Under the pieces are notes generated by a model. It did not search any database and had not been told where the DNA came from. It saw nothing but the letters and a program-made list of their open reading frames with translations. A program made the translations under genes and the position numbers. DNA of 64,000 nucleotides from a virus. The DNA lies in the IMG/VR virus record IMGVR_UViG_3300005663_000028, positions 1 to 64,000 of that record. One strand, given 5' to 3'. Position 1 is the first letter of the stretch, and the number at the start of each line of letters is the position of its first letter. Below, piece by piece: positions 1 to 42,071 of the stretch.

Positions 1-138
1 TTTGTGTAGTCCAACAGTTCCAAATCTCCTCTCAATTCCCTCTGGATTTCCTGTACTTTGGGCAACAACTTTTTCGCACACCAATCCATCCGCGATATCT
101 CGGACACATTGGGATAAACTTAGTCCAATCAGCTTCAT
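1..138 (-). CDS. hypothetical protein, runs off the window edge
   Basis: ATG at 138 with an AGGA SD; open to the edge (MKLIGLSLSQCVRDIADG...). Not in the ORF track. Confidence 0.4.
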   Translation of the reverse strand, partial: MKLIGLSLSQCVRDIADGLVCEKVVAQSTGNPEGIERRFGTVGLHK

Positions 139-180
139 ATTACTGTTCCTTCCAAAAACAAGTGTCCAATTACGGATAAT

Positions 181-513
181 TTAGGCATGCCCCAATAGGC
201 CGAATCTATCGTAATATGCTGGTTTAGCGAGATACCTACTACTTCTTCTTAAATCCCACCATAACAACACATTGCCTACGTTTATCACCCCTAAAAGCAA
301 GAAAAGCCACCATGTCAACAACACAAACAGACCAATAATCACCACTTCTAGAGCCAGTGACCCCAAATACATAAGTTCACTCACCCACCTACAGACACGG
401 TCGGTCCTAGACGCTTTGACCATCCGTATACTTCCCGCTGACCACCACTCAGGTTCTGGTTTGCCTTCAAATGGCCATTTCGGCGATTGTGTGTGAGGGT
501 TGATATTTGTCAT
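181..513 (-). CDS. hypothetical membrane protein
   Basis: ORF 181..522; ATG at 513 preferred (GAAGGG SD); long hydrophobic stretch. Confidence 0.55.
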   Translation of the reverse strand: MTNINPHTQSPKWPFEGKPEPEWWSAGSIRMVKASRTDRVCRWVSELMYLGSLALEVVIIGLFVLLTWWLFLLLGVINVGNVLLWWDLRRSSRYLAKPAYYDRFGLLGHA

Positions 514-755
514 TTCGTACACCCTTCAAAGACAAGTGTCCGGCTACAGACATATTGTTTCTACAACGTAGCAATCCAGTTTAGGACCATAAAGGTTAGT
601 CCCCACAGGATGGCTCCGGTAGAAAAACAATTGATACTTTTCTTGGCGACTCGGTTGGTGAAATTGCTTATGAGGGCACAGATCAGAAACATTATCCACC
701 CAATTACAAACGCTGCGCCATAGTTGACCATTTTTAGCACTCCTTCAGTATCCGA

Positions 756-1082
756 TTATGGACCAAATGGTAGGTTCGTAGCCTGATTGTGCTCGACGGC
801 TTTATTAACCAGTCGATTGAAGTTGTTGGATAGCCACTCAAAGTGAGGACATTCCGTTTTTTCGGCCAGTACCTCAGCAAGACCGGAAAGTAGACGCATA
901 ACCCCGACGGAGTCGATGGCCGCTCTTACCTGAACCTCACAAGCCTTCCTTCTCCAGTCGGTTCCTATTTCACCACAAGACACAGGTAGGGTCTCCTGTG
1001 CCATTTCCTTGAACATGTCCGATATGTCTTGGTAGAATTCTTGACCACCAGGATCATTCTCTTCAATACCCATATTGTTCAT
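756..1082 (-). CDS. hypothetical protein
   Basis: ORF 756..1100; ATG at 1082 after GGAAGGGG SD. Confidence 0.55.
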   Translation of the reverse strand: MNNMGIEENDPGGQEFYQDISDMFKEMAQETLPVSCGEIGTDWRRKACEVQVRAAIDSVGVMRLLSGLAEVLAEKTECPHFEWLSNNFNRLVNKAVEHNQATNLPFGP

Positions 1083-2026
1083 TTTTCGTACCCCTTCCAA
1101 ATCTTATACTTAGCAGGGACTTACTATCGCCTATTGCCTATCCCTGCCACTTTTCACCACCAGTCCCCATTACCTCCCACACACACGATAAAACATATAT
1201 AGGGGGTAAACGAGACTGGGATTGGATGCGACTTTGCAGCCGCGAAAGCGGTGTTTTTGACCCGATAAGACGTGTTTTTGTGCCACTAACCCTTATACCC
1301 AACATACACCCCACAAGCTTTTGGCAGGCGCCCCAAGTCCGAGCGCGATTTTTGTCCGGAATCTGTGTTTAAGATGCTTAGAATCCCCTTTTGTTACTAA
1401 CAACACCCTACACAGAACACTAAACCCCCAGGGGTGCAATTTTGGGTGACTTGCTCATAAACCCCACTGACGGTACTTAGAATCCACTTTTAGTACCAAT
1501 TACTCCTTATAACAACACAAACACACCCTACAAGGGTAATGAGGGTGCTATTTTTAGGGGTGCTTTTGGCAGGTGCCCGTTAGAGACAAACACCAAGAAT
1601 GTTTGATGGACCAAACATCCCTGAATACTATTCATAAATGAGTATCATACAGGAACAGAAGACCAGGAAATATGATACCATAAATATCACAAGGAAAACA
1701 AAGGGATGTAGGAACATCCAGTCAGCCATGCGTTTGTAAATCTTCATTCTGAGTCTCCCAAAGACACTTGCATGAGAATGCAAACGTTCTCTTACCCCTT
1801 CCCTGTTCTCCAGGTTCGTAGATTTCTGACCATTCTCTTAAAGTCAGCCGTTCTTGCTGAACAGTCGAGAATACCAATCAGACGATATGCCATTTCGTTG
1901 GCGGTGAGTTCTTTGATCTTTTTTACTTTCTTTGCCATGTCAATGACCCCTTAATTTGCTGGACTAGTCCTAAAACCCCGAAAGTCTTTGGAAAAACCCC
2001 GGATAGTTTATGGGAAGGGTGATTAG

Positions 2027-2197
2027 TTAGTTAGGGGTGATAACTACCACATTGGCGACGGTATCAAGAGATAGTTTGACTCTGACGCACATACGTCTCA
2101 TCCCGAACGATTCTGGCGTTTGGTCGCGATCCTCAAGTACTACATCGAGCGACGGATTAAACGTATTGAGCTTTTTTATCAATTCTTGTACTGTCAT
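2027..2197 (-). CDS. small hypothetical protein
   Basis: MTVQELIKKLNTFNPSLDVVL, an N-terminus typical of small phage proteins; GGAG SD. Confidence 0.55.
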   Translation of the reverse strand: MTVQELIKKLNTFNPSLDVVLEDRDQTPESFGMRRMCVRVKLSLDTVANVVVITPN

Positions 2198-2214
2198 TTC
2201 TTTCTCCAAGGTTG

Positions 2215-2310
2215 TTAGTTGAAGATGGCCGATAACAAATAATAACCCATAACAAATCCTACTATGAGTAGAATAATACTCTCGACAACAAGAGGAGTGT
2301 GTCTACTCAT
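2215..2310 (-). CDS. small membrane peptide (31 aa)
   Basis: manual translation MSRHTPLVVESIILLIVGFVMGYYLLSAIFN; purine-rich SD; abuts the next gene. Confidence 0.45.
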   Translation of the reverse strand: MSRHTPLVVESIILLIVGFVMGYYLLSAIFN

Positions 2311-3832
2311 TTTTCTTCCCTTCCAAAAGACGACGACCCGTGGTACATGATTCTAGACTGTGACACCCAGTAGGGCTTTTGTCAAATATAAATCGCTTAC
2401 CTTTGACTTGGACAAGCTTACTGGGGGTAGAACCCCCGTTCGTCCCCTTTCGATTCCGCGCGCAGGTAGAGACGCATTTTCACCCTTTAGGATATATTAT
2501 AACTCCACTACGTCGGTTAGCTAGACCAACAAGGTAGTTAATCCCAGAGCCGCAATCCCCAATACTGGCAATAGATGCCGACGTTAGCGTCTCACCCCTA
2601 TACCATACAGAGCCGTCGGATGTGACTAGAAATAATACATTTCTCCTTCAGCTAAACCACAGTCCAGAATCACATACCACAACAAAAAAAGAGACCGGAC
2701 GGGCAGGCTTCGGCACGATTTATTAACCCATCCTTCATTCACGGGATCATTCTTCCGCCCCGTATAGGCTTGCCACAGCATTACCCGTCGACAGAGAGTT
2801 AAGGGTCGACGCCGCTCTAGGCCACATTCCCGCCCGATCTCAAAAATTGGCAAGCTAACCCACCAAACTTGCCACACGAATAAGGCACTTTGCAGTGCGA
2901 CACCCTCCGAAGAGAATGTCTTACCCGCATTCCCGGCCCATTAGGCCCTAACCGCTGCTTTTTTATGGACTACGCCCTAGCAGATAAATCTAGCTATCTG
3001 TTAATCCAGGACGGTTTCTTGAGTCCTTAACTTAACGACCAATCAAAGCCGAAACAGTCTCGCTAGACGAGATATATCTGTTTCTAAACTCCGTTTGTCG
3101 TGTCGCGCCGTTCAGCTACAAAAAAATCGCGACTACGAATACTGCCCGTATTCGCGCCACGACCTATAATGCCATTCCGACATGCGAAGAATTGTTCCAC
3201 CTATCAAACTTTCGGACCGAATATACCGCCAGCAACAGGACATTAGACCGGAAAGAAAGAATTGACAGTTTAGCAATTACTAGACATGCCCTTGGAAAAT
3301 TGCCTATCACGCGACAATAAAAAACCTACACTACTACGACCAGACGGCTTACCATAACGTACATCTGATAGTGAACACGACCTACCCTTTTCTGTCTTGC
3401 TATCCGGGGCTGTACCGGAACCGTGCGCCACAAACTAGGAATCGTGCCGATAATACGTTACTTGACCCGCCCGCGCAATTATAGCGTAGACTAAGTCCGC
3501 ATTTCGGACTTTACGTTCTGTCGCCTCTAAGACTGGCGTTCGACCGATAACTGTTTGCCCCGCCTGGAACCGGACGGACGCACGTCCTGCGCGACCATCG
3601 GACTGTATGACGGCAATTATCAGACTACTACCCAACCCCGTCCGGGGATACCCGACGCTTATCGGACTTCCCGCTGTGATTGGTTATGGGACGTGCTGAC
3701 GATATATTTTTCGCCTATAACGATAAAGTGCTACTTTACCAAACACGTCTGATTCTGACTAATAAGCCAGAATACCCATCGAGACGCGCCCCGCCATCGA
3801 GGCGCGCGTGCGACAGATACTCCATATCGGAC

Positions 3833-4156
3833 CTACTTGCCCAGTTTCTTGAGCGCCATACGGGTAGCGCCAATACCGTTCCGACGTCCGAGAATCGACT
3901 CGGCAATGACGGCGGCACTATCGGACCCAAAGCCCAGATCGCGCGGTGGAGTGTACCGACTTTTCGTGCCCTCCTCGATCTGACGCTCATACGTTTCCCA
4001 CGTTAACTTGAGCGCGGCTTGAGCATCGTCGAGACTGTCGTACTTAGACGCGGCATTCATAATGGCCGCATTTTGAGCGTAGACAGCGGCATTAGCCTTA
4101 AATTCGGTAGACCCAAATCCCGTTGACGTTCCGGTAGTCTGTGCGGTTTGTGACAT
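3833..4156 (-). CDS. hypothetical protein behind a long structured leader
   Basis: ORF 3833..4243; ATG at 4156 has a GGAGA SD; Ala-rich helical sequence. Confidence 0.6.
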   Translation of the reverse strand: MSQTAQTTGTSTGFGSTEFKANAAVYAQNAAIMNAASKYDSLDDAQAALKLTWETYERQIEEGTKSRYTPPRDLGFGSDSAAVIAESILGRRNGIGATRMALKKLGK

Positions 4157-4366
4157 TGACTTTTCTCCAATGTTAGACCGTCCCCAGACGAGACTACACC
4201 GTCCCGACCAGGGACGGACAAGTAGAATCTTATCGGAACTCATATTCGGACTTACATTGCGTAAGCCACCTGTTATCGGTCCCTTGCGGGACTTCGGTAT
4301 GTCCGCTTTTTTTGGGACGTTCTGAAACGTCCCTTTTCTGTAGGATGTTTTTTATTCCTACATAAT

Positions 4367-4395
4367 ACTATACCCCTAGTTATACAACCTGTCAA
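4367..4395 (-). promoter_or_regulatory. sigma70-type promoter TTGACA-17-TATAGT
   Basis: -35 at 4390-4395, -10 at 4367-4372, exact 17-bp spacer. Confidence 0.8.
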
Positions 4396-4978
4396 GGCGC
4401 GCCCGGAAATAGATTTTCGCCGTTTTTGGGCTTGAATCCACGATGTTATCGTCCAATTACCGATAATCTGCGATTGTAACAACGTCCGGATTTTTCGCTC
4501 ATTTATCGATCGTCTTCCTATAATATCTTCGTTATTCGCTCAAAATCCATTGTTTTATCGGAAAGTCCTATATTATAGGTTACGCGAGACCTATAACGTG
4601 CCATTTTGGGTCTGATAACCATGAAAAATGCGATATTATTGGTTAATACCTATAAGTCATGGTCCTATAACTCGAAAAGGTCGAAATTTTGGCTAAAAAT
4701 CGACACATTCTCGGACAGAGTAAACTATTATTGGCCTCGTCCGATAAAAACCCACGGCCCAACGTCCTATAATGAGAACCCTAGATTCCCCCTCTCGGGG
4801 CACCGCCCAACGTCCGATAATTAGCCAGACCCAAAAGGTCCGATAAAGTTGGACCAACGTGCGTCCGATAATGATTTGCGGAAAGAGGCCGATAACGTCC
4901 CTTTGTGCGAAAAAAAATAGGACCGAAGGTTGTGCATTCCCACGGTCCCGTAACCTATTGTACTCAACACGTCCGATA

Positions 4979-5596
4979 TTACGGATCGTCGCGCCATCGG
5001 TCCGATAAACCGCCGAACCTATACTTGTCCGATAACTTGTCGAGAACCTTATCGGTCCAGAACATGTCGAATGGATTATCGGTCTCTTCCAGTGTCACTT
5101 CAAGACCGTTGATTCCGATAACACGAAATGGCCGACACCTGCCGTCCGATAATAGCCAGTCCAGCAGATGTTCGCCGATGTTCCGATAATTGTGGTAAAT
5201 ATAGTCGCCGATTATCGGTCGTTTGTGTTTTATCGTTAGTCCGATATCCGCACAGTGCCGAAGTCTCGCCAACGCCCGATAATACTTGAATGGAATCTCG
5301 ATCGTCGTTTGCGCCTTATCGGTCACATTCTCGCCATCGCCCTGCGCACGTCCGATTTTCGGACCATCATCTTCCTTGTCGGTCGTTGTGTTGGATTCGA
5401 TCGCCGCGACTCGGTCCAATAATCCGTCGATTTGCGACAAGTGCGCGCCGTGTTGTTCTGTCATTTTTTCCAGTATCGCTTGATGGCCCGATAACTGCTG
5501 GACAATCTTATCGGTCATTGCGTTTGCCGCGTCCGATAATCTCAGAACTGATTTTTCGAGATAATCAATTCTCTCTTCAATTGTTCTTTCACACAT
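4979..5596 (-). CDS. hypothetical protein (N-terminal coiled coil; C-terminal domain paralogous to 5832..6158)
   Basis: ORF 4979..5632; ATG at 5596 has a GGAG SD. Confidence 0.6.
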   Translation of the reverse strand: MCERTIEERIDYLEKSVLRLSDAANAMTDKIVQQLSGHQAILEKMTEQHGAHLSQIDGLLDRVAAIESNTTTDKEDDGPKIGRAQGDGENVTDKAQTTIEIPFKYYRALARLRHCADIGLTIKHKRPIIGDYIYHNYRNIGEHLLDWLLSDGRCRPFRVIGINGLEVTLEETDNPFDMFWTDKVLDKLSDKYRFGGLSDRWRDDP

Positions 5597-5610
5597 ATTA
5601 TCGCTCCTTG

Positions 5611-5793
5611 TTATCTGTCCGATATTGTCCACTCTATCGTACCGACAGCACAGTCCGATAATGGTAGATGGTCTTGGCCGTGGTCCGGTAATCTACGTCG
5701 CAGGAGTTTGTCTATTATCGGTCTTTCCCATAGCGTGCCCCATGAGGTTCCGATAACCTGTAAATCCTCGTATGTTAGGTGATAGCGTGGCAT
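5611..5793 (-). CDS. hypothetical protein
   Basis: ATG at 5793 with a GGGG SD, in the minus-strand gene train. Confidence 0.5.
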   Translation of the reverse strand: MPRYHLTYEDLQVIGTSWGTLWERPIIDKLLRRRLPDHGQDHLPLSDCAVGTIEWTISDR

Positions 5794-5831
5794 ATTATCG
5801 CCCCCCTGTTTTCCCGTGGCGCTCGCGCCAC

Positions 5832-6158
5832 TTATAAGTTGTTGTTCCACTTGTCCCACAAATGCGACAGACCCGCGTCGTCCGATAACTGCTGGGTGAT
5901 CTTATCGGTCCAGTGCGCGCCATTCGGATTGTCGGATAGTCCCAATTTGACATAGTCGCCTTGTTGTTCGATAATCTCGAACATCGTGCCGTGCGATTTG
6001 GTTTGGTCTGATAACCACTTTTTTAGGTTATCGACCCATCGCCCGTAAACGAACGAGAGAACCGATTTGTTGTCCGATAATCTGTTCATCTGGACTAGCG
6101 AAATATAAAATCCCGCTGGAATTGTCAGTCCGATAATCACTACCTGTACTGTCGCCAT
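5832..6158 (-). CDS. hypothetical protein
   Basis: ORF with GGGAG SD; shares DNP..WTDK...LSD motif with the 4979 gene. Confidence 0.6.
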   Translation of the reverse strand: MATVQVVIIGLTIPAGFYISLVQMNRLSDNKSVLSFVYGRWVDNLKKWLSDQTKSHGTMFEIIEQQGDYVKLGLSDNPNGAHWTDKITQQLSDDAGLSHLWDKWNNNL

Positions 6159-6232
6159 GTTATCGCTCCCTTTTTCGTGATTTTTCGTCTGATAAAAACG
6201 CGTTCATTTCACGTTATCGGCTTGTCCGATAA

Positions 6233-6607
6233 CTACTGCCCTGCGCTGCCCACCAAAACACCGCGCGTCAACCGCCGATTGCGCTCGCTTTCGACCACCG
6301 CCCGATAATTGACCTTCCCTACCGTATCCGACTCATCGACGTCCGAAAACATAAAGTTTCCGAGATAGCCGAATTCGTTGCCCAAGCGTCTGATAAGCGC
6401 TTTTTTCGCTGACTCCCGGTTTGCGCCGAATTCGCAGGCGCCATATAATGCGCTGTGAAACGGACCGACGACGACGCATAGGCAACCGCCGATAACCTTT
6501 TCGTACCGATACCGCACGGTCTTTGCTCGCGCCCGCTTATAGAACACCCCTTCGTCCGATAAGGGTTTGTTCCGTTTCGCTGTGTGTCCGATAACATGCC
6601 TGCCCAT
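6233..6607 (-). CDS. hypothetical protein
   Basis: 124-aa ORF directly downstream of the promoter at 6655-6683; GGAG SD. Confidence 0.6.
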   Translation of the reverse strand: MGRHVIGHTAKRNKPLSDEGVFYKRARAKTVRYRYEKVIGGCLCVVVGPFHSALYGACEFGANRESAKKALIRRLGNEFGYLGNFMFSDVDESDTVGKVNYRAVVESERNRRLTRGVLVGSAGQ

Positions 6608-6654
6608 GATACGCTCCCAAAAGTCCCAATAATTGTCTGCTGCCGTTTACACCG

Positions 6655-6683
6655 ATTCTAGGCGCCCGATATTGGGAAGTCAA
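6655..6683 (-). promoter_or_regulatory. sigma70-type promoter TTGACT-17-TAGAAT
   Basis: -35 at 6678-6683, -10 at 6655-6660, 17-bp spacer; CCGATAA copy at 6687-6693 next to the -35. Confidence 0.75.
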
Positions 6684-6716
6684 GGACCGATAAAAGAATT
6701 TTCACTTTTGGTCCTA

Positions 6717-6956
6717 TCATATCCCGGCCCAAACAGAGGTCCGATCAGTTTCACTGGGTCTCAGGTCCGATAAAACACACCCGGAGTAAACCCGCGCGTT
6801 GAGGTCCGATAACTTGCAGTACGCCCGATAACCTTTGGCTCCGCGCACAAAAAAGCGGCCCGATAATAGAGCCGCTTGTTGGGTTTCAACCGCTGAATAT
6901 GTCGGTCCATTGTGTGTCACAATTGACACAACATGCACGTTGGCGAACAACGCCAT
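6717..6956 (-). CDS. hypothetical protein
   Basis: ORF 6717..7025; internal ATG at 6956; overlaps the end of the upstream ORF. Confidence 0.4.
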   Translation of the reverse strand: MALFANVHVVSIVTHNGPTYSAVETQQAALLSGRFFVRGAKGYRAYCKLSDLNARVYSGCVLSDLRPSETDRTSVWAGI

Positions 6957-7236
6957 TATCGGTCCTTGGGGCACCGATGCCAACGACAACGTCCGATATA
7001 AAACACTCTGGACAGACATCGACATCGTCCACGTTATCGGCCCTAACGCTGTGATTGCGGAAGGTACGTCCGATAAGTCTCACACCTAGGTGTCCGCTAT
7101 CGTATCCACCTTGCCAAGCGATCGCGAGGCCAACGTCAACCGCCTCGATCGATTCGATAACACGTCGTGCCGACTCGGAGCACATACCTTGTCGCCTTGC
7201 CGTTGTCCCGTAGTCAAATGCTTCGTGTTCGTTCAT
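6886..7236 (-). CDS. hypothetical protein with C-terminal zinc ribbon
   Basis: CPEC...CVNC pair; GGGAG SD. Confidence 0.5.
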   Translation of the reverse strand: MNEHEAFDYGTTARRQGMCSESARRVIESIEAVDVGLAIAWQGGYDSGHLGVRLIGRTFRNHSVRADNVDDVDVCPECFISDVVVGIGAPRTDNGVVRQRACCVNCDTQWTDIFSG

Positions 7237-7252
7237 AGCACACCTACGCTCC

Positions 7253-7543
7253 CTAAATGATTGGTCCTATAACCACGTCGTTTGCCCATTCGCGGAATCC
7301 ACCGCAACGTCTGATAACATCCATGTCCACCGGACGAATACTTGTGCCTAGTTCGCCGGTCAGCGAGTCGCGTCCGATAGCTACTATTTCTCCCGTAGAT
7401 AGCCTAATCGTCACAGACCCATCACCGTCCGATAACGTCAATGCCGCGAGTCGTCCATAGGACATGGCCATAACGTCCGAGAACATGGTGTATGTCAATT
7501 CTGGGAAAGGTCCGTTTTTCGGTATTGTGATTGTCGCGAGCAT
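7253..7543 (-). CDS. hypothetical protein
   Basis: ATG at 7543 with an AAGG SD. Confidence 0.55.
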   Translation of the reverse strand: MLATITIPKNGPFPELTYTMFSDVMAMSYGRLAALTLSDGDGSVTIRLSTGEIVAIGRDSLTGELGTSIRPVDMDVIRRCGGFREWANDVVIGPII

Positions 7544-7570
7544 GATACACAACCTTTCTTGTTATCGGCC

Positions 7571-7765
7571 CTAGTCGGCCGAGCAATAATCATAGTAGTC
7601 ATGCGGACCATGGATTTCTAGTTCCGATATTCGCCCCGAATCTAGTTCATCGGCGGCATATTCTCGGGCTTTGGCAAGGTCCGAAAACGAACGCGTTTTG
7701 TACTTCCGCAAACGGGTCGGTGTTTTCAGGTGGCACACAACGTCGTATTTTTCGGTCGTTTGCAT
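7571..7765 (-). CDS. hypothetical protein
   Basis: ATG at 7765 with an AAGGGAG SD. Confidence 0.55.
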   Translation of the reverse strand: MQTTEKYDVVCHLKTPTRLRKYKTRSFSDLAKAREYAADELDSGRISELEIHGPHDYYDYCSAD

Positions 7766-7779
7766 AATACAGTCTCCCT

Positions 7780-7866
7780 TTACAAAGAGTTGAGATCGGA
7801 AAGAATGTCCGAGAACCAAAACCATCCAACCGCCACCAACACGAGTCCGATAATAAGCACTGTCAT
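7780..7866 (-). CDS. small membrane peptide (28 aa)
   Basis: MTVLIIGLVLVAVGWFWFSD...; the start at 7866 removes the overlap with the upstream gene. Confidence 0.45.
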   Translation of the reverse strand: MTVLIIGLVLVAVGWFWFSDILSDLNSL

Positions 7867-7870
7867 TGCC

Positions 7871-8134
7871 CTATCCCTTCTCGTCGAATGTTCCGTCACT
7901 CGCCTGTACCACGTCACCCGATGCACGATACCATCCATCGGCCCAATTGTCGAACGCGGTGTCACCGATCGGCGATGTCGTTGGCATTGTGTCGCCTGCG
8001 AGGTAGCCGAAGTATCCGGTTTTGAATTCAGGTCGCTTCCGATCGAATCGTGCGTAATGCTTCGCGTAATGTTTCGTCCAATTGAATCCGGCGTCGGCTA
8101 GTTTCTGTATTGCTTGTCCTGTCCCGTCGTTCAT
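7871..8134 (-). CDS. hypothetical protein
   Basis: ATG at 8134 with a GGGAG SD. Confidence 0.55.
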   Translation of the reverse strand: MNDGTGQAIQKLADAGFNWTKHYAKHYARFDRKRPEFKTGYFGYLAGDTMPTTSPIGDTAFDNWADGWYRASGDVVQASDGTFDEKG

Positions 8135-8156
8135 GGCTTGCTCCCTTCGTCCGATA

Positions 8157-8291
8157 TTAGCCCCGATACTGCATCGAGAACGCTCCCTTGATACACCCGA
8201 TAACAATCACCGCTACGATACACAAGGCGAACCGAGTAAGGTCCGAAAACATCCATTCGCCCGCTTCCATGATCGCTTGTTCGATGTTCAT
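8157..8291 (-). CDS. small membrane protein (44 aa), first gene of the leftward arm
   Basis: manual translation MNIEQAIMEAGEWMFSDLTRFALCIVAVIVIGCIKGAFSMQYRG; GGGAG SD; downstream of the promoter at 8327-8355. Confidence 0.55.
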   Translation of the reverse strand: MNIEQAIMEAGEWMFSDLTRFALCIVAVIVIGCIKGAFSMQYRG

Positions 8292-8326
8292 CGCTTTGCT
8301 CCCGTTGGCCACCGTCGGCCAATTGA

Positions 8327-8355
8327 ATTGTAGGATACGATCGGCGCGGATGCAA
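8327..8355 (-). promoter_or_regulatory. sigma70-type promoter TTGCAT-17-TACAAT
   Basis: -35 at 8350-8355, -10 at 8327-8332, 17-bp spacer. Confidence 0.65.
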
Positions 8356-8443
8356 AAACATTGCCAAGAAAACTTTTGGTCCGATAACTCTGCCCTGGTC
8401 GGTGGTGCTCGCTCCCAGATAGGGGGAGTAGAGGTAACGTCAC

Positions 8444-8706
8444 GTCACGAGGTAGGGTCACGAGGTAGGTAGGGTCACGAGGTAGGTAGGGTCACGAGGT
8501 AGGTAGGGTCACGAGGTAGGTAGGGTCACGAGGTAGGTAGGGTCACGAGGTAGGTAGGGTCACGAGGTAGGTAGGGTCACGAGGTAGGTAGGGTCACGAG
8601 GTAGGTAGGGTCACGAGGTAGGTAGGGTCACGAGGTAGGTAGGGTCACGAGGTAGGTAGGGTCACGAGGTAGGTAGGGTCACGAGGTAGGTAGGGTCACG
8701 AGGTAG
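8444..8706. repeat. 17-bp tandem repeat GTCACGAGGTAGGTAGG
   Basis: 14 perfect units (8457-8694) plus partial units at both ends. Confidence 0.97.
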
Positions 8707-9127
8707 CACCTACTATATGTGGTGTGCCCATACCAACCTACCTACCACATGGATAGTCCGATAACTCCGCCGCTACGTCCGAAAGGGGTACGCCCGATAA
8801 ATAGGGGATTTGGAAGGCGTGGGGGCGTCCGATAAGCCGACGGGGTTCAGGCAAATCCGGCCCCCAAAACCCACCCCCTGCCAAAAACAATAATGTATAT
8901 TTCATATCTGCAAAAACCCCGTCTTTAAGAATTTCGCTACATTAACCACCTCTTCTCCCTCCTCTTCATGTTGAAACAAACTTCAACACCCTCCTTTCAG
9001 TAAACACCGGTACACTTTTACTGCATAACGTTCCACCTAGTCGAACGATCTACATAGGGGGTGTACCCCTTTTATAGACGCTATATCAATAGACTTATAG
9101 GACTGAAAAAAGATGCAAAAATAATCT

Positions 9128-9212
9128 GAGACCATGCAACACAGGCCCCACTTACACGTATAATAGTATAGAGAGAAGATGTCGCAATGGTCTCATGAGC
9201 TTCGCACCTTTT
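9128..9212 (+). promoter_or_regulatory. ACGTATAAT promoter with GAGCTTCGCAC leader element (copy A1)
   Basis: ACGTATAAT 9156-9164; GAGACCAT/ATGGTCTC inverted repeat; ATGAGCTTCGCAC 9195-9207. Confidence 0.6.
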
Positions 9213-9225
9213 AGGAGACAACAGA

Positions 9226-9417
9226 ATGGACAAGACAGATTGGTCCGATCTCAACAAAATAGCAGACATAAGTGACGAGGAATCAAAAAGGTTGAATTCC
9301 CCAAGTGGTAGAAAATGTCCAGTGTGTACTAAAGAAATGACGACCGGAGATAACGAAGCTGCTGGTATCTGTAGTCGATGTTATGAAGAAGAAAATCTAG
9401 AACAGAAATTACGTTAA
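9226..9417 (+). CDS. small zinc-finger protein
   Basis: CPVC...CSRC; AGGAG SD. Confidence 0.6.
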   Translation: MDKTDWSDLNKIADISDEESKRLNSPSGRKCPVCTKEMTTGDNEAAGICSRCYEEENLEQKLR

Positions 9418-9420
9418 CCT

Positions 9421-9440
9421 CACTTTTGTGTCTCGCTAAC
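9421..9440 (+). repeat. 20-bp intergenic element CACTTTTGTGTCTNGCTAAC (B1)
   Basis: further copies at 10279, 10944, 57877 and 61623. Confidence 0.8.
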
Positions 9441-9455
9441 CGAAAGGAATAAATA

Positions 9456-9914
9456 ATGGGAATGAGTAGTACTGCTATCTTATTTTGGGGTCTCTGTAGT
9501 GATGAGGAAGAGGAGCATTGGAAAAATATCGGCAGGGATGAAGAAGACCTCGATTACTACAATCCATTCGATGATAATGATGATGATGAGCCAGACGATG
9601 AGGATTGGGAGGAAATCTATGCCACCAAAAAAGGGTTGCATTACCCCTCAGAACCACGCAATGAGTATTGGGATGCAAAACGTAAGCTTGTCAAGGAATC
9701 GGGATGCGAAATTGGTACCCATTGTTCATTTGATTATGGAATGCCCTATATAGCAATTACAGAAAGTGAAATTCGGGCATACCAAGGATGTCCAGAAAAG
9801 ATAGAGACCCTTGAAGTGAAATCTGACTGGGAACAAAAATTACGTGAGTTTTGTGGGGTTATGGGTATTAAGTGGTCTGAGCCGAGGTGGTGGATTGTAA
9901 GTTTATATGGCTAA
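9456..9914 (+). CDS. acidic hypothetical protein
   Basis: 152-aa ORF with AAGGA SD. Confidence 0.7.
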   Translation: MGMSSTAILFWGLCSDEEEEHWKNIGRDEEDLDYYNPFDDNDDDEPDDEDWEEIYATKKGLHYPSEPRNEYWDAKRKLVKESGCEIGTHCSFDYGMPYIAITESEIRAYQGCPEKIETLEVKSDWEQKLREFCGVMGIKWSEPRWWIVSLYG

Positions 9915-15294: not shown

Positions 15295-15599
15295 ACAAAA
15301 TACAATTACACTGTATGTGTTGCGATCGTATTCTTGAAGGGGAGAAATGGGACGATAACCCGTTGACTATTAACCCCGTATATAATGGTCTAATTTTTCG
15401 ATCTAACGGTAACTTTGGATCAACTATTTTTGATCCCATGCCCATTGGTAATGAAGAGTTTCTTCAAGTTGTTATCTGTGATTTTTGTGTCATGCAGAGG
15501 GACGAGCGAGTAACGAGGGTTTATAACATAAAGACAACAAAAACTGCCGAGTCAGAATCTTTTGAGGTGGAGGAAAGGGAAGAAAATGATCAACACTGA
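15291..15599 (+). CDS. hypothetical protein
   Basis: gene train; CxxC motifs. Confidence 0.6.
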   Translation: MNKIQLHCMCCDRILEGEKWDDNPLTINPVYNGLIFRSNGNFGSTIFDPMPIGNEEFLQVVICDFCVMQRDERVTRVYNIKTTKTAESESFEVEEREENDQH

Positions 15600-16242
15600 T
15601 AATCCAATAATTTCACTAGACCTGGAAACGGGTGGGTTGGAACCTGGGAAGCATTCGGTTTTGTCTATTGGCGCTGTTGTCGTACCTAATCCAGGAAACT
15701 TTGAAGATAAAAACATTACCTATGATGTTACAGAAGAGAACTCATTCTATGTTCAACTTGAGTGGCCTACTGTTGTTGTTGATCCTAGGGCTATGCAGAT
15801 TCATAAATTGAATATCGTAAGTCCACCCGGATACGGTGGCGATATGTTGAGTATGAGTCAGGACGGGACTGAGGGGCTCAAGCGATTTGGTAAATGGATT
15901 TCACGATTAGTTTTACACACCAATCAGTTGGTATATGCCCTTGGGGTTAATGTTGGTTCGTTTGATTTGAAAATGTTGCGTTCTCCATGGAATGATTTAA
16001 ATGGTCTTTTTTGGCCATTTCATTATCGGTCGATTGATTTAAATAGTCTGTTCTTTGCTTTAGCTAGTAGGCGAAATATGTCTTTCAGCGATGTAAAGAA
16101 AGAGATAACTGAAACTGCTTGGAAAAGAAGTGGTTTTTCTACTGACATGGAGCATCATGCCCTTGCTGATGCGTGGTCTAATGTGTATGTGTGGGAAGAA
16201 TGCCTTAAGCAGTTTGGTGGTGATTGTGAGGTAGCGTGTTAA
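15586..16242 (+). CDS. DEDDh 3'-5' exonuclease (DnaQ-like)
   Basis: LDLETGG (ExoI), N..FD (ExoII), HHALADA (ExoIII). Confidence 0.85.
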   Translation: MINTDNPIISLDLETGGLEPGKHSVLSIGAVVVPNPGNFEDKNITYDVTEENSFYVQLEWPTVVVDPRAMQIHKLNIVSPPGYGGDMLSMSQDGTEGLKRFGKWISRLVLHTNQLVYALGVNVGSFDLKMLRSPWNDLNGLFWPFHYRSIDLNSLFFALASRRNMSFSDVKKEITETAWKRSGFSTDMEHHALADAWSNVYVWEECLKQFGGDCEVAC

Positions 16243-40616: not shown

Positions 40617-42071
40617 GTGAGACCAGTAAAGATAAATGAGAGTTTGTTGCACGACTTATATGTTCATCTCGAATTGACGGCCAAGGAATGTGCTAAAATT
40701 CTAGGTGTCAGTGATACGTCTATCTGTCGTCGTCTAAAAAAGCTTGGAATACGAGTTAGACCTCCAATTAGGGGGTTGATGACAAATATTAGTGATGACC
40801 AAGTTATTGATCTGTACTGGAATAACAAACTTAGTATTTGTGAAACAGCAAAGAAATTAGGGGTTAGCGAGGGGTGTGTAAAAAAGCGATTAAACAAATC
40901 GGGGAAAGGAACCAGGACTGTTCGGGAGGGCGCAAGACTATGGAGAGGTAGCGATGAAATATTGGATGACCAATTAATACATTTATACGATGTATGTGGT
41001 TGGTCATGCGAAAAAATATCGGCTCACTTCAATAAGAGTTCCCAGTTTACCAGACATAGATTTATAGCAATGGGTAAGGAGCGGAGAAAGAACACTGGGA
41101 AAAATAATGGATCATGGAAAGGTGGAATAAACGATATTGGAAGTGCGGTACGTGGTTGTGCTACTTCATTACAGTGGAGAAAAGACGCATTTTCAAAGCA
41201 GCAATACAAAAGTGAAATTTCCAACCAACAAATTAGAGAATTAAATTGCCACCATATATATCCATTTCACGTTATTTTGCGATCCTCAATAACAAAACAT
41301 ACACCCTTGCCAGACGAATACAGAAGCTTGGCAATTGTCAACGACCCCAGATTCTACGATGGTCAAAACGGCTTGGTTGTATCAAAAGAGGAGCACGACA
41401 ATATCGAGATGGGTAAATTAGATCAAGCACACCCTTGGTGGAAAATTTGGCAAGCCTATCCATCGTTTGCAATTAATCGCAGTGATTTTAATGATATGGA
41501 TTTTGATTTATTTAACGATAAGGGAATGATACGTCCGACCGATTACAGTATTAATATTTCCCCCGTAGGGGACATAAAACACATAATTAGATACGAACAT
41601 TATTTAGGGACCATTCCTGGTTCCAAATTAATACTTGTAGCTAGACAGAAAAGTGTCATTGTCGGAATAGCTACGTTTGGCAAAGGCACCAACAGAAATA
41701 TACCTGATAATACTTGGGAGTTAACCCGTCTCTGTATTCCCTTTTATGTGGTAAGACCATTTGCCTGTGAGTTTTTGGACCGGTGCTATGGCTATATCAG
41801 AGAGAATTACCCCCAGATTAAGGAATTGGTGTCATTTGCAGATTCTTCTGTCGGACACAATGGTGGTATTTACCGAATGGCCAAATGGGCGAAAAACGGA
41901 CAAACACCCCCTAGCTATGCCTATTTTGATCCAGCAACGTTTAAATTGATGCACAAATCAGCTTGTAGAAGAATTAAGGGTGTTGATAAAACCGAACGGG
42001 AATTGGCAGACGAAAGAGGGTGGATTCGCATTCCTCTTACTCACAAGTATAAATATTCACTTATTCTGTAA
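40617..42071 (+). CDS. 3xHTH + HNH-like + Mom/Hef-like GNAT fusion protein
   Basis: three LY..L...A..LGVS repeats; NGSWKGG; CHHI...NG...H; WELTRL...LVSFAD...GH.G.IY. Confidence 0.7.
   Translation: MRPVKINESLLHDLYVHLELTAKECAKILGVSDTSICRRLKKLGIRVRPPIRGLMTNISDDQVIDLYWNNKLSICETAKKLGVSEGCVKKRLNKSGKGTRTVREGARLWRGSDEILDDQLIHLYDVCGWSCEKISAHFNKSSQFTRHRFIAMGKERRKNTGKNNGSWKGGINDIGSAVRGCATSLQWRKDAFSKQQYKSEISNQQIRELNCHHIYPFHVILRSSITKHTPLPDEYRSLAIVNDPRFYDGQNGLVVSKEEHDNIEMGKLDQAHPWWKIWQAYPSFAINRSDFNDMDFDLFNDKGMIRPTDYSINISPVGDIKHIIRYEHYLGTIPGSKLILVARQKSVIVGIATFGKGTNRNIPDNTWELTRLCIPFYVVRPFACEFLDRCYGYIRENYPQIKELVSFADSSVGHNGGIYRMAKWAKNGQTPPSYAYFDPATFKLMHKSACRRIKGVDKTERELADERGWIRIPLTHKYKYSLIL

Follow-up and report, generated by a model that had tools for sequence, protein, structure and literature searches.

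Cluster A mycobacteriophages such as L5 and Bxb1 carry stoperators: asymmetric 13-bp repressor sites, present in 24-36 copies per genome and oriented with transcription. In the dif/XerCD system, for which E. coli provides the paradigm, the site is instead single, with one 28-bp dif per replicon made up of two inverted arms and a 6-bp core. IMEX elements (CTXphi, VGJphi, TLCphi) and pdif modules carry complete dif-like sites, with both arms, that serve integration or recombination. Xer sites can also act on translocases: as summarised in PMC11840125, XerD-binding sites (XDS) in the Bacillus subtilis terminus unload or block Smc-ScpAB (Karaboja et al. 2021), and an artificial XDS array blocks a DNA translocase. 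Finally, in phages of Alphaproteobacteria, sites for a conserved host DNA-binding protein, the CtrA boxes, precede early genes (PMC9437464).

A field of one word in the arm of an uncultured phage

The locus described here belongs to an uncultured phage with a ~180-kb genome (179,553 bp), from which we analysed a window of 64,000 nucleotides. A sequence-only reading had singled out an arm saturated with CCGATAA, counting about 54 copies in it and only about ten in the rest of the window. Exact counts bore this out: the field at 3447-8835 contains 54 copies of CCGATAA/TTATCGG (39 on the plus strand, 15 on the minus strand) and the window elsewhere 12, and the resulting 66 copies compare with 8.0 ± 2.7 (maximum 15) in shuffles. 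The whole genome contains 76, only 22 of which lie in the other 174 kb outside the field. An 11-mer position-weight matrix (A-S-G-T-C-C-G-A-T-A-A) identified 117 sites above 10 bits genome-wide, 82 of them in the field. Apart from a 17-bp tandem array, no comparably enriched 6- to 9-mer was found in 3-kb stretches elsewhere in the genome.

The word occurs at similar density in coding (9.5 per kb) and non-coding (10.7 per kb) DNA of the arm, and all three frames are used. The enrichment persisted in a codon-preserving control that had been proposed with the original observation: the coding parts hold 30 copies, against 4.8 ± 2.0 (maximum 12) in 2000 synonymous-codon shuffles that kept every protein and the codon usage of the arm, and against 0.7 when codon order was shuffled. 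The non-coding parts hold 24 copies where 0.6 were expected, so that the excess is 6-fold over protein-preserving shuffles and 40-fold over the non-coding expectation. The sequence flanking each copy is variable. Neighbouring sites in the same orientation are practically never closer than 14-15 bp, with a single exception at 12 bp, a spacing at which simultaneous occupancy of all sites would be possible. In 72% of copies TTATCGG reads in the sense direction of the leftward operon, and the remaining 28% are antisense. As had also been noticed, the arm is more GC-rich (0.508 against about 0.41), and its CpG observed/expected ratio is raised (1.46 against 0.79); the motif does not explain this richness, since only about 60 of the 511 CpGs of the arm fall inside motif words.

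The genes of the arm lie on the minus strand. The g1 gene (3833-4156, 107 aa) has no family match, is predicted with low confidence to be helical and is conserved in 10 related loci; it forms a hole in the field, with 0-2 motif copies per ortholog in all orthologs. The orphan g2 (4979-5596, 205 aa) carries 13 copies, encoding LSD, TDK, VIG and YR peptides; g3 (5611-5793, 60 aa), which is homologous in contigs G001 and G004, carries three, and the orphan g4 (5832-6158, 108 aa) four. The g5 product (6233-6607, 124 aa) was modelled with an alpha-beta-beta-beta-alpha core that is weakly dsRBD-like. The gene is conserved in 9 related loci, and its orthologs have 4-7 copies each at partly different alignment columns, indicating turnover of sites at constant density. 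Six small genes follow at 6886-8291 (g6, g7, g8, g8b, g9 and g10; 28-116 aa), each preceded by a Shine-Dalgarno sequence; g6, g7, g8b and g10 bear motif copies, and only g7 is present in several relatives. There was no sign of the origin, centromere or packaging role once suggested for the arm: neither Rep, Par or terminase genes nor an iteron architecture were found in it or next to it.

Three sigma70-like leftward promoters lie in the field: one at 8356-8327 (TTTGCA-18-TACAAT or TTGCAT-17-TACAAT) that starts the operon of small genes, one before g5 at 6683-6655 (TTGACT-17-TAGAAT) and one before g1 at 4395-4367 (TTGACA-17-TATAGT). Plus-strand arrays occupy the intergenic regions, with five same-orientation copies spaced 24-73 bp at 4741-4895, between g2 and the g1 promoter, five at 6687-6866, and three spaced about 35 bp at 8758-8835, in the divergent intergenic region at the right edge of the field. 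The last three are past the 17-bp tandem array; the field therefore ends in the divergent region and not, as first described, at the array. The description of copies adjoining -35 boxes held at one of two places: the copy at 6687 directly abuts the TTGACT box of the g5 promoter, starting 10 bp upstream, whereas the one placed at 8381 (8379-8387) lies 24 bp upstream of the -35 box of the operon promoter. In the phage and three relatives alike, a copy starts 9-10 bp upstream of the g5-promoter -35 box and another is found 71 bp upstream of the g1 promoter. Motif polarity reverses around the g1 promoter, and this flip is retained in relatives. A minus-strand hairpin resembling an intrinsic terminator follows g6 (6877-6853), with the motif copy at 6860 in its loop.

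Relatives keep an equivalent field at the same locus, which was one of the checks proposed at the outset. Each of five related contigs (TerL about 75% identical) has one field of 3-5.5 kb in the same word and the same majority orientation; it lies about 25 kb before TerL on the upstream side, and the word is nearly absent from the rest of the contig. Genes in the arm change rapidly between relatives, only g1 and g5 being common to at least 9 loci. The arm is colinear on both flanks with the independent contig G001, where it has the same gene order; it is thus not an assembly chimera, a concern raised at the outset. Together, the use of all frames, the intergenic copies, the excess that withstands shuffling and the retention of the field in relatives despite site turnover support the view that selection acts on the word as DNA sequence and that the copies form a field of recognition sites.

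Identity of the word with the predicted XerC arm of dif

A logo built from 472 sites in the family of this phage and 216 sites in other phages reads A-S-G-T-CCGATAA-Y, with nothing conserved for 30 bp beyond. The predicted dif sites of Anaeromyxobacter begin with ACGTCCGATAAT and those of Myxococcus with AGGTCCGATAAC (PMC2731167); an acidobacterium has ATGTCCGATAAC, both Alicyclobacillus and Symbiobacterium have ACGTCCGATAAT, and 87 predicted sites in the supplement of the same study contain CCGATAA (PMC3025954). The word is identical to the predicted left (XerC) arm at 12 of 12 positions, degenerate positions and the Y at +1 included; the compared sites are computational predictions, in which the left arm is attributed to XerC on the model of E. 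coli. For this match, recognised post hoc, we estimate the chance of coincidence at <1%. Moreover, two single-base variants tolerated in the field, GTCTGATAA and GTCCTATAA, are natural dif arms (of Chlamydia and Nitrospirae, and of Flavobacteria, respectively). Neither the field nor the whole genome yielded a partner (XerD) arm, a 6-8-bp core geometry, a dif-like core site, an inverted pair at 6-8 bp spacing or a conserved central region. Judged by its sequence, the arm appears to be a field, at the level of DNA, made up of isolated dif half-sites of the XerC type, of which there are about 54 exact and about 80 near-consensus copies. The original proposal of a binding field for one DNA-binding protein thus stands as far as recognition sites in DNA are concerned; as the word equals an 11-bp XerC-type arm, its likely reader is an Xer-family recombinase and not the phage HTH protein then envisaged.

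The phage itself encodes an Xer-type recombinase of 294 aa, with scores of 214 bits for XerD and 205 bits for XerC, each under the equivalog cut-off. It is present in four of the four relatives that cover the region, and its catalytic R-K-H-R-H-Y residues are invariant across 25 homologues. Retention of all of them implies a real recombination substrate; a search of the genome for complete dif-like sites found none, which leaves this protein tied to the field by association only. Dense arrays of the same 12-mer also occur outside the family, in 8 phage genomes that are at least 92% complete. These arrays are short, of mixed orientation and promoter-proximal: they occur 30-250 bp upstream of TTGACN-17-TACAAT promoters, to which TTATCGGAC points, and they include opposite-orientation copies. 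Seven of the eight lack a tyrosine recombinase, and BLASTP between the two phage groups returned no plausible common reader, only matches to two generic ORFs. Both results favour a reader encoded by the host.

Candidate readers and possible roles of the field

With moderate confidence, we read the arm as early promoters and genes overlaid with a non-recombining binding field for an Xer-family recombinase, in the simplest case host XerC. The recombinase, a tyrosine recombinase, would bind the sites as monomers and would not recombine them. Host XerC is the simplest candidate because it would be in the cell when the DNA enters and because unrelated phages that lack a recombinase bear the same arrays; the family's own conserved Xer paralogue may bind the field too. 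Occupancy of the early region could then provide a promoter-proximal regulator, a roadblock or an insulator, in the manner of stoperators, which seems the most likely role given that sites lie at and upstream of sigma70-type promoters and through early genes, the majority in one orientation. The sites may also titrate XerC away from dif, as a side effect or an alternative purpose. We infer Xer binding, the identity of the binder and the effect of binding alike. Among the points that count against this reading, orientation with respect to transcription is 72% and so not absolute, XerC is not known to be a transcription factor, and E. coli XerC binds its own arm weakly without XerD, so that stable occupancy of isolated XerC arms is not a given. 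The intact catalytic residues of the phage Xer and the GC and CpG richness left unexplained by the motif also count against it.

The word could instead be read by a DNA-binding protein other than Xer, with the XerC-arm identity a coincidence. Such a reader might come from the host, as a transcription factor or nucleoid protein, or be an early protein of the phage that evolves fast, and the arrays would then be ordinary operator or activator sites of early promoters that were expanded to a field in this family. Indeed, four genomes have sites clustered at and upstream of sigma70-like promoters, in the position of class I/II activators (-37 to -47), and XerC is not known to act at promoters; most genes of the arm, being orphans, could conceal a binder, and g1 and g5 are conserved within the field. 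We nevertheless consider a non-Xer reader unlikely in view of the full match to predicted dif arms and the want of a plausible common reader in the two phage groups. Moreover, neither HTH proteins nor members of other DNA-binding families were detected within the arm or next to it, g5 being at best dsRBD-like and g1 a low-confidence helical prediction. It is improbable that Xer-catalysed strand exchange uses the field as its substrate, be it for shuffling early genes between co-infecting phages, for which the pdif modules of Acinetobacter plasmids are a parallel, or for resolving or processing replicating genomes by the phage Xer. The intact catalytic residues and rapid gene turnover in the arm would fit exchange, as would a 77-bp assembly branch point with an alternative 2.2-kb path adjoining the arm and the contigs of many relatives that break near the field. 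However, known Xer reactions require XerD bound beside XerC, the field and genome offer no second arm, conserved centre or inverted pair, and most of the array-bearing phages outside the family do without a tyrosine recombinase.

Very improbable is a Chi-like or other polar signal read by a nuclease or translocase of the host (RecBCD/AddAB, FtsK or SMC-type complexes), by which the field would shield the DNA that is exposed first in the cell or serve as a decoy: its density of 10-18 per kb far exceeds that of Chi-enriched phages, 28% of copies point the opposite way, the arrays of other phages are short, mixed and promoter-proximal, and the word, a dif-arm match, corresponds to no Chi site that we know of. 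The 39:15 strand bias and the conserved polarity flip would suit such a signal, as would the finding, given in PMC11840125, that Xer-site arrays can block Smc-ScpAB. The sense-strand bias would suit action in RNA, with UUAUCGGAC in early transcripts as the target of an RNA-binding protein or endoribonuclease controlling early mRNA. We hold this to be extremely improbable, since more than a quarter of the copies are antisense, those at 8379-8387 and 8758-8835 lie upstream of the first promoter, whole arrays in other phages are upstream of promoters with opposite-orientation copies among them, and the word equals an arm of a double-stranded DNA recombinase site. The deviant composition of the arm and a k-mer-sized 77-bp duplicate in the contig at 1-77 and 177306-177382 would fit an artefact, be it a chimeric assembly, inserted foreign DNA with a k-mer signature of its own or a side effect of a repeated peptide motif. 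The probability of an artefact is negligible: in independent assemblies the field recurs with the same flanks and gene order, the sequence around the word varies, and the excess outlasts protein-preserving shuffles and is equally strong in non-coding DNA.

Comparison with described systems

In the literature searched we found no paper describing such a layout of a field in a phage, in agreement with the first impression of the locus. An early-gene arm overwritten with predicted XerC words, genes and gaps alike, and the recurrence of the same word in two unrelated phage groups point to an undescribed use by phages of the host Xer recombination system. Like dif, the field combines the predicted left-arm sequence, including the first spacer base (PMC2731167, PMC3025954), with variants that match dif arms of other phyla, in a phage that encodes an Xer-family recombinase. 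Unlike dif, it packs 54-98 isolated left arms into 5.4 kb, lacks a right arm and a core, and is written through the genes and promoters of a lytic-looking phage. XDS provide a precedent for dif-like Xer sites that act without recombination; as summarised in PMC11840125, they are XerD-type, few and spread across a chromosomal terminus, whereas the phage sites are XerC-type and dense. CtrA boxes share the placement of host-protein sites before phage early genes but are few and serve a true transcription factor (PMC9437464), while the field consists of dozens of recombinase arms extending through genes. IMEX elements and pdif modules resemble the phage in being mobile carriers of Xer recognition sequences; they depend on host Xer proteins, as the phage may, and differ in that the phage has no complete site. 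Stoperators are the best working analogy for how the field may act, as many copies of a short asymmetric word, biased in orientation, lie both at promoters and inside transcription units. Stoperators, however, are mostly intergenic, occur about once per 2 kb genome-wide and are read by a phage repressor in lysogeny, whereas the word described here saturates the coding DNA of one 5-kb arm and matches the site of a host recombinase.

Density of the word and gene content of the arm

The sequence-only reading had described an arm of the window, 3447-8836, saturated with about 54 copies of the word CCGATAA/TTATCGG, and our recount agreed: 54 exact copies lie in 3447-8835 (hereafter the field), against 22 in the other 174 kb of the phage genome, a single viral contig of 179,553 bp whose first 64 kb make up the window. 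In the 64-kb window there are 66 exact copies versus 8.0 ± 2.7 in shuffles, and an 11-mer matrix finds about 82 near-consensus copies scoring above 10 bits within the 5.4 kb. Apart from a 17-bp tandem array at 8444-8700, no comparably enriched short word occurs elsewhere in the genome. This array is perfect and sits between the leftward promoter of the arm and the last three motif copies.

The 54 copies are split between coding (30) and non-coding (24) DNA at equal density. Coding copies of TTATCGG are found in all three frames, and those of CCGATAA in the two frames that avoid a TAA stop. Enrichment persisted when synonymous codons were shuffled so that every protein and the codon usage of the arm were preserved: the 30 coding copies compare with 4.8 ± 2.0 after shuffling (maximum 12 in 2000 shuffles), and the 24 non-coding copies with an expected 0.6. 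The excess over both expectations therefore indicates selection on the DNA word. The sequence-only reading had noted that the motif biases the proteins towards LSD and IIG peptides; LSD, IIG and TDK are a by-product of the DNA word. At three places (window 5029-5055, 5488-5514 and 5882-5908) two copies form a facing pair with a gap of exactly 13 bp (CCGATAA-N13-TTATCGG), and these pairs encode a recurring peptide, TDK-x4-LSD/LSG, in the small genes g2 and g4. The arm also differs in composition (GC 0.51 versus about 0.41; CpG observed/expected 1.46 versus 0.79). Window 3400-8850 contains 511 CpGs, 2.8-fold denser than the rest of the genome, and the arm of relatives is equally CpG-rich. We considered the motif as the source of this richness and ruled it out: motif words hold only about 60 of the 511 CpGs, and neither the GC nor the CpG content of the arm is due to them.

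Eleven small genes encoding 28-205 aa make up the leftward operon of the arm, which runs on the minus strand from a promoter at 8356-8327 to 3833 with a Shine-Dalgarno sequence before each gene. Two internal sigma70-like promoters (6683-6655 and 4395-4367) and a terminator (6877-6853) lie on the same strand. Pfam and PHROGs returned no significant family for ten arm proteins and no repressor in or beside the arm; among ten neighbouring proteins the sole significant family was an exonuclease-like domain at 15562-16242. Farther along the window, directly after the capsid region, a 484-aa protein (40617-42071, plus strand) combines HNH-endonuclease-like and Mom-like DNA-modification PHROG matches. 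Rfam gave no family in window 1-9500, megablast of the arm against cultured phages gave no match, and TerL and the arm proteins had remote matches to cultured phages or none. Structure models were of low confidence (pLDDT 64 for g5 and 58 for g1). The gene g5 (6233-6607, minus strand), which is kept inside the field in 9 loci, has a modelled alpha-beta-beta-beta-alpha core with pLDDT of about 80 at residues 30-90; Foldseek found no match to it in the PDB at E ≤ 0.001, and the best rows, which were weak (TM by target about 0.6, E about 0.3), were double-stranded-RNA-binding domains.

Two stretches called non-coding, window 3279-3830 and 4157-4655, show 66-72% nucleotide identity in relatives with tblastx matches in every frame, and the hairpins around the g1 promoter fall within them; they may represent a structured leader or small RNA. 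GATAAT within the motif is usable as a -10 hexamer at 5947-5975 (plus strand), 6983-6955 and 5103-5075 (both minus), and an antisense match within g4 (5832-6158, minus strand) reaches 11/12 with TTGACA-17-GATAAT. Judged by these hexamers, some motif copies could fire antisense transcripts.

Identity and geometry of the word

A logo built from 472 sites of the relatives (group A) and 216 sites of other phages reads A-S-G-T-CCGATAA-Y, with no conserved position beyond the word for 30 bp. This word agrees with the left arm of predicted dif sites at all 12 informative positions, degenerate ones included. Predicted dif sites of this kind have been listed for Anaeromyxobacter (ACGTCCGATAAT-ATGGA-TTATGG...) and Myxococcus (AGGTCCGATAAC-ATGCG-TTATG...) (PMC2731167), and for an acidobacterium (ATGTCCGATAAC...) and Alicyclobacillus and Symbiobacterium (ACGTCCGATAAT...) (PMC3025954); CCGATAA is contained in 87 predicted dif sites of the supplement to the latter (PMC3025954). 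Two of the variants that the field tolerates, GTCTGATAA and GTCCTATAA, occur as dif arms elsewhere (Chlamydia and Nitrospirae; Flavobacteria). We regard the assignment of the word as an XerC-type arm of dif as sound, with the reservations that the dif sites compared are themselves predictions and that their left arm is taken as the XerC arm by analogy with E. coli.

No copy has a second inverted arm of the XerD type (TTATGTNAANT) 6-8 bp from the word, and nowhere in the genome is there an arm-N5-9-arm inverted pair or an XerD-like arm adjoining ATAA. We sought a complete dif-like core in four ways (motif-N5-9-TTAT, an XerD-arm pattern, matrix pairs, and generic TAA-N6-8-TTA inverted repeats), and by all four pattern searches it was absent from the whole genome. 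The field therefore does not consist of recombination sites in the known sense.

A single orientation is shared by 39 of the 54 copies (72%) on the leftward operon, and the polarity flips near the g1 promoter. In four group A genomes a copy has its start 9-10 bp before the -35 box, and a copy at -71 of the g1 promoter is likewise found in four. Promoter-proximal copies read TTATCGGAC towards the promoter in relatives and in the unrelated array-bearing phages (group B) alike, which is the orientation of the 72% in the operon. Between neighbours in the same orientation the spacing practically never falls below 14-15 bp; the one exception is 12 bp. A 10.3-bp helical phasing of these spacings was also tried (power 9.9 versus a null 99th percentile of 6.4); the value is inflated by near-duplicate loci and tandem units and we do not rely on it. 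The promoter-linked layout resembles operator or stoperator logic more closely than a pure sponge. Against this, the sites have also spread into coding DNA, as would be expected if their number or the coverage they give were important.

Related and unrelated phages, and the candidate readers

Scanning IMG/VR for three TCCGATAA copies within short gaps gave at least 120 loci, many of them plain tandem repeats, including many low-GC and giant-virus ones, but two real groups stand out. Members of group A have a TerL about 75% identical to that of the phage studied here, on contigs of up to 165 kb. Each contig carries one field of 3-5.5 kb with 9-14 copies per kb and almost none elsewhere, with the majority orientation and the polarity flip near the g1 promoter as in the window. 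The position of the field is some 25 kb upstream of TerL, so relatives do keep an equivalent field at the same locus. On one of these phage contigs (G001) the field is internal and both flanks are colinear with the window; the arm is therefore not an assembly chimera, a possibility that the sequence-only reading had raised. Conservation over 9-10 group A loci is limited to g1 (3833-4156, minus strand) and g5. The g5 orthologs contain 4-7 copies each at alignment columns that partly differ, which points to turnover at constant density; g1 itself is devoid of copies, and its orthologs contain 0-2. Many contigs end near the field. Window 1-77 is an exact repeat of positions 177306-177382 of the whole genome (G000), 2.2 kb before the contig end, and this k-mer-sized, 77-bp junction suggests a circular or permuted genome of 177.3 kb with an alternative 2.2-kb branch (G000 177383-179553). 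The last kilobase of the branch has a GC content of only 30-38%, and this branch next to the arm has the appearance of a strain-variable cassette.

Group B, taken together with some further phages, spans 40-98 kb at GC 0.49-0.59 and has no relationship to the phage studied here, BLASTP matches between them being limited to two generic ORFs. These phages have the same word packed into two or three short intergenic arrays that lie 30-250 bp ahead of sigma70-like promoters. One unrelated 60-kb phage (G008), with all genes on one strand and no tyrosine recombinase, has two 12-mer arrays (L247:9950-10200 and L247:14370-14740, in the coordinates of its locus) directly upstream of promoters of the TTGACC-17-TACAAT type.

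A reader for the word could be encoded by the phage or by its host. The single tyrosine recombinase of the genome (G000 134,577-135,461, minus strand; L240:1432-2316 in its retrieved locus) reaches bit scores of 214 for XerD and 205 for XerC, under both equivalog cut-offs. It belongs to a large phage clade of more than 100 clusters at 43-72% identity, the next matches being at or below 36%; its catalytic residues are all invariant, and it is present in all four relatives that cover the region. The gene order ThyX-Xer-ClpP-sigma-like (L240:274-2316, G000 about 133.4-135.5 kb) is conserved in relatives. ThyX lies upstream of the Xer gene, which overlaps with the beginning of a gene for a ClpP-family protease; next comes a sigma-70 region-4-like protein. 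One relative has an additional BrxL-like gene near this block. For this catalytically conserved enzyme the genome holds no complete dif-like site as a substrate. Even searches with the phage-Xer profile (E ≤ 1) found no tyrosine recombinase in seven of eight array-bearing phages outside group A (at least 92% complete), so the word cannot in general be read by a phage-encoded Xer. The recombinase-free second group shifts the likely reader to the host, where a protein of conserved specificity, XerC, is the most economical candidate for the predicted reader; the phage Xer may be an extra component in group A, in which arrays have grown into a field that covers genes. Genome contigs were scanned once for clusters of three copies; most of the loci recovered were coding tandem repeats of the SDN type, with no host signal and no word-saturated taxon. 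A polar nuclease signal of the Chi type would be expected in strand-skewed excess throughout the host chromosome. Lysinibacillus genomes contain 4-5 direct 21-bp repeats with TGTTCCGATAAA (L127:2691-2781, L184:3473-3563 and L202:7238-7307) that resemble the classic iterons found in plasmid or prophage replicons; they have no relation to the phage field.

Possible functions and known systems

Among functions for the field, we place occupancy or regulation of the early region by the reader foremost, as a tentative proposal. Titration of XerC is rather less probable, a barrier to translocases is improbable, and a local swivel is the least credible of the four; Xer proteins have topoisomerase activity, on which such a swivel would draw. 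We also put forward, as less likely than not, the reading that at least two unrelated phage lineages exploit the host chromosome-dimer resolvase through bare XerC-arm arrays on early promoters and, in group A, through 5 kb of early genes too. XerC would either be recruited as a DNA-bound regulator, roadblock or swivel or be soaked up away from dif, with the Xer paralogue of group A acting on the same field. Arrays of Xer half-sites in phages are not described in the papers we found, and a full-text search for the word gave only primers. If the resolvase reading is correct, phages and hosts would meet at an interface of a new class, and XerC would have a new role outside recombination, as XerD does at XDS sites. 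A dense and conserved field of isolated XerC arms would mean that lytic-type phages use the recombinase as a DNA-binding module, or neutralise it, and that an entire block of genes can have its coding sequence remodelled by selection for words that a protein binds. The field word should predict the left arm of the host dif, a possible host-assignment marker for uncultured phages, and the field is a ready-made substrate for XerC-binding tests.

Several known systems invite comparison. The stoperators of cluster A mycobacteriophages are mostly intergenic, spread genome-wide and read by a phage repressor, whereas the field has 30 of 54 copies in coding DNA and occupies 5.4 of 180 kb. Stoperators are oriented strictly with transcription; in the field, 39 of 54 copies face one way on the leftward operon. 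The earlier suggestion of an origin or centromere platform was not supported: those elements combine tandem direct 17-22-bp repeats or parS palindromes with an AT-rich unwinding element and adjacent rep or par genes, while the field word, 9-12 bp long, runs through genes and is found in both orientations, its spacing varying irregularly from 14 to 100 bp across the 5.4 kb. Pfam and PHROGs detected neither Rep nor Par proteins within the arm or next to it.

Xer/dif is among the most conserved DNA-processing systems of bacteria, and to our knowledge integrating elements exploit it only via complete dif-like sites. The attP of IMEX is such a site, recombined with the host dif by XerCD, and the phage genome is without one. 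The 11-bp arm of the field matches the XerC-arm consensus of dif but is not accompanied by the second inverted XerD-type arm, and dif is present in a single copy per replicon near the terminus, unlike the 54 exact copies (about 82 above 10 bits) in 5.4 kb. That Xer sites can work without recombining has a precedent in XDS, at which XerD unloads or blocks Smc-ScpAB (PMC11840125). The XDS arm is of the XerD type, whereas the field word matches left (XerC) arms and not TTATGTNAANT; the sites of the field are isolated and would, on our reading, act without recombination.
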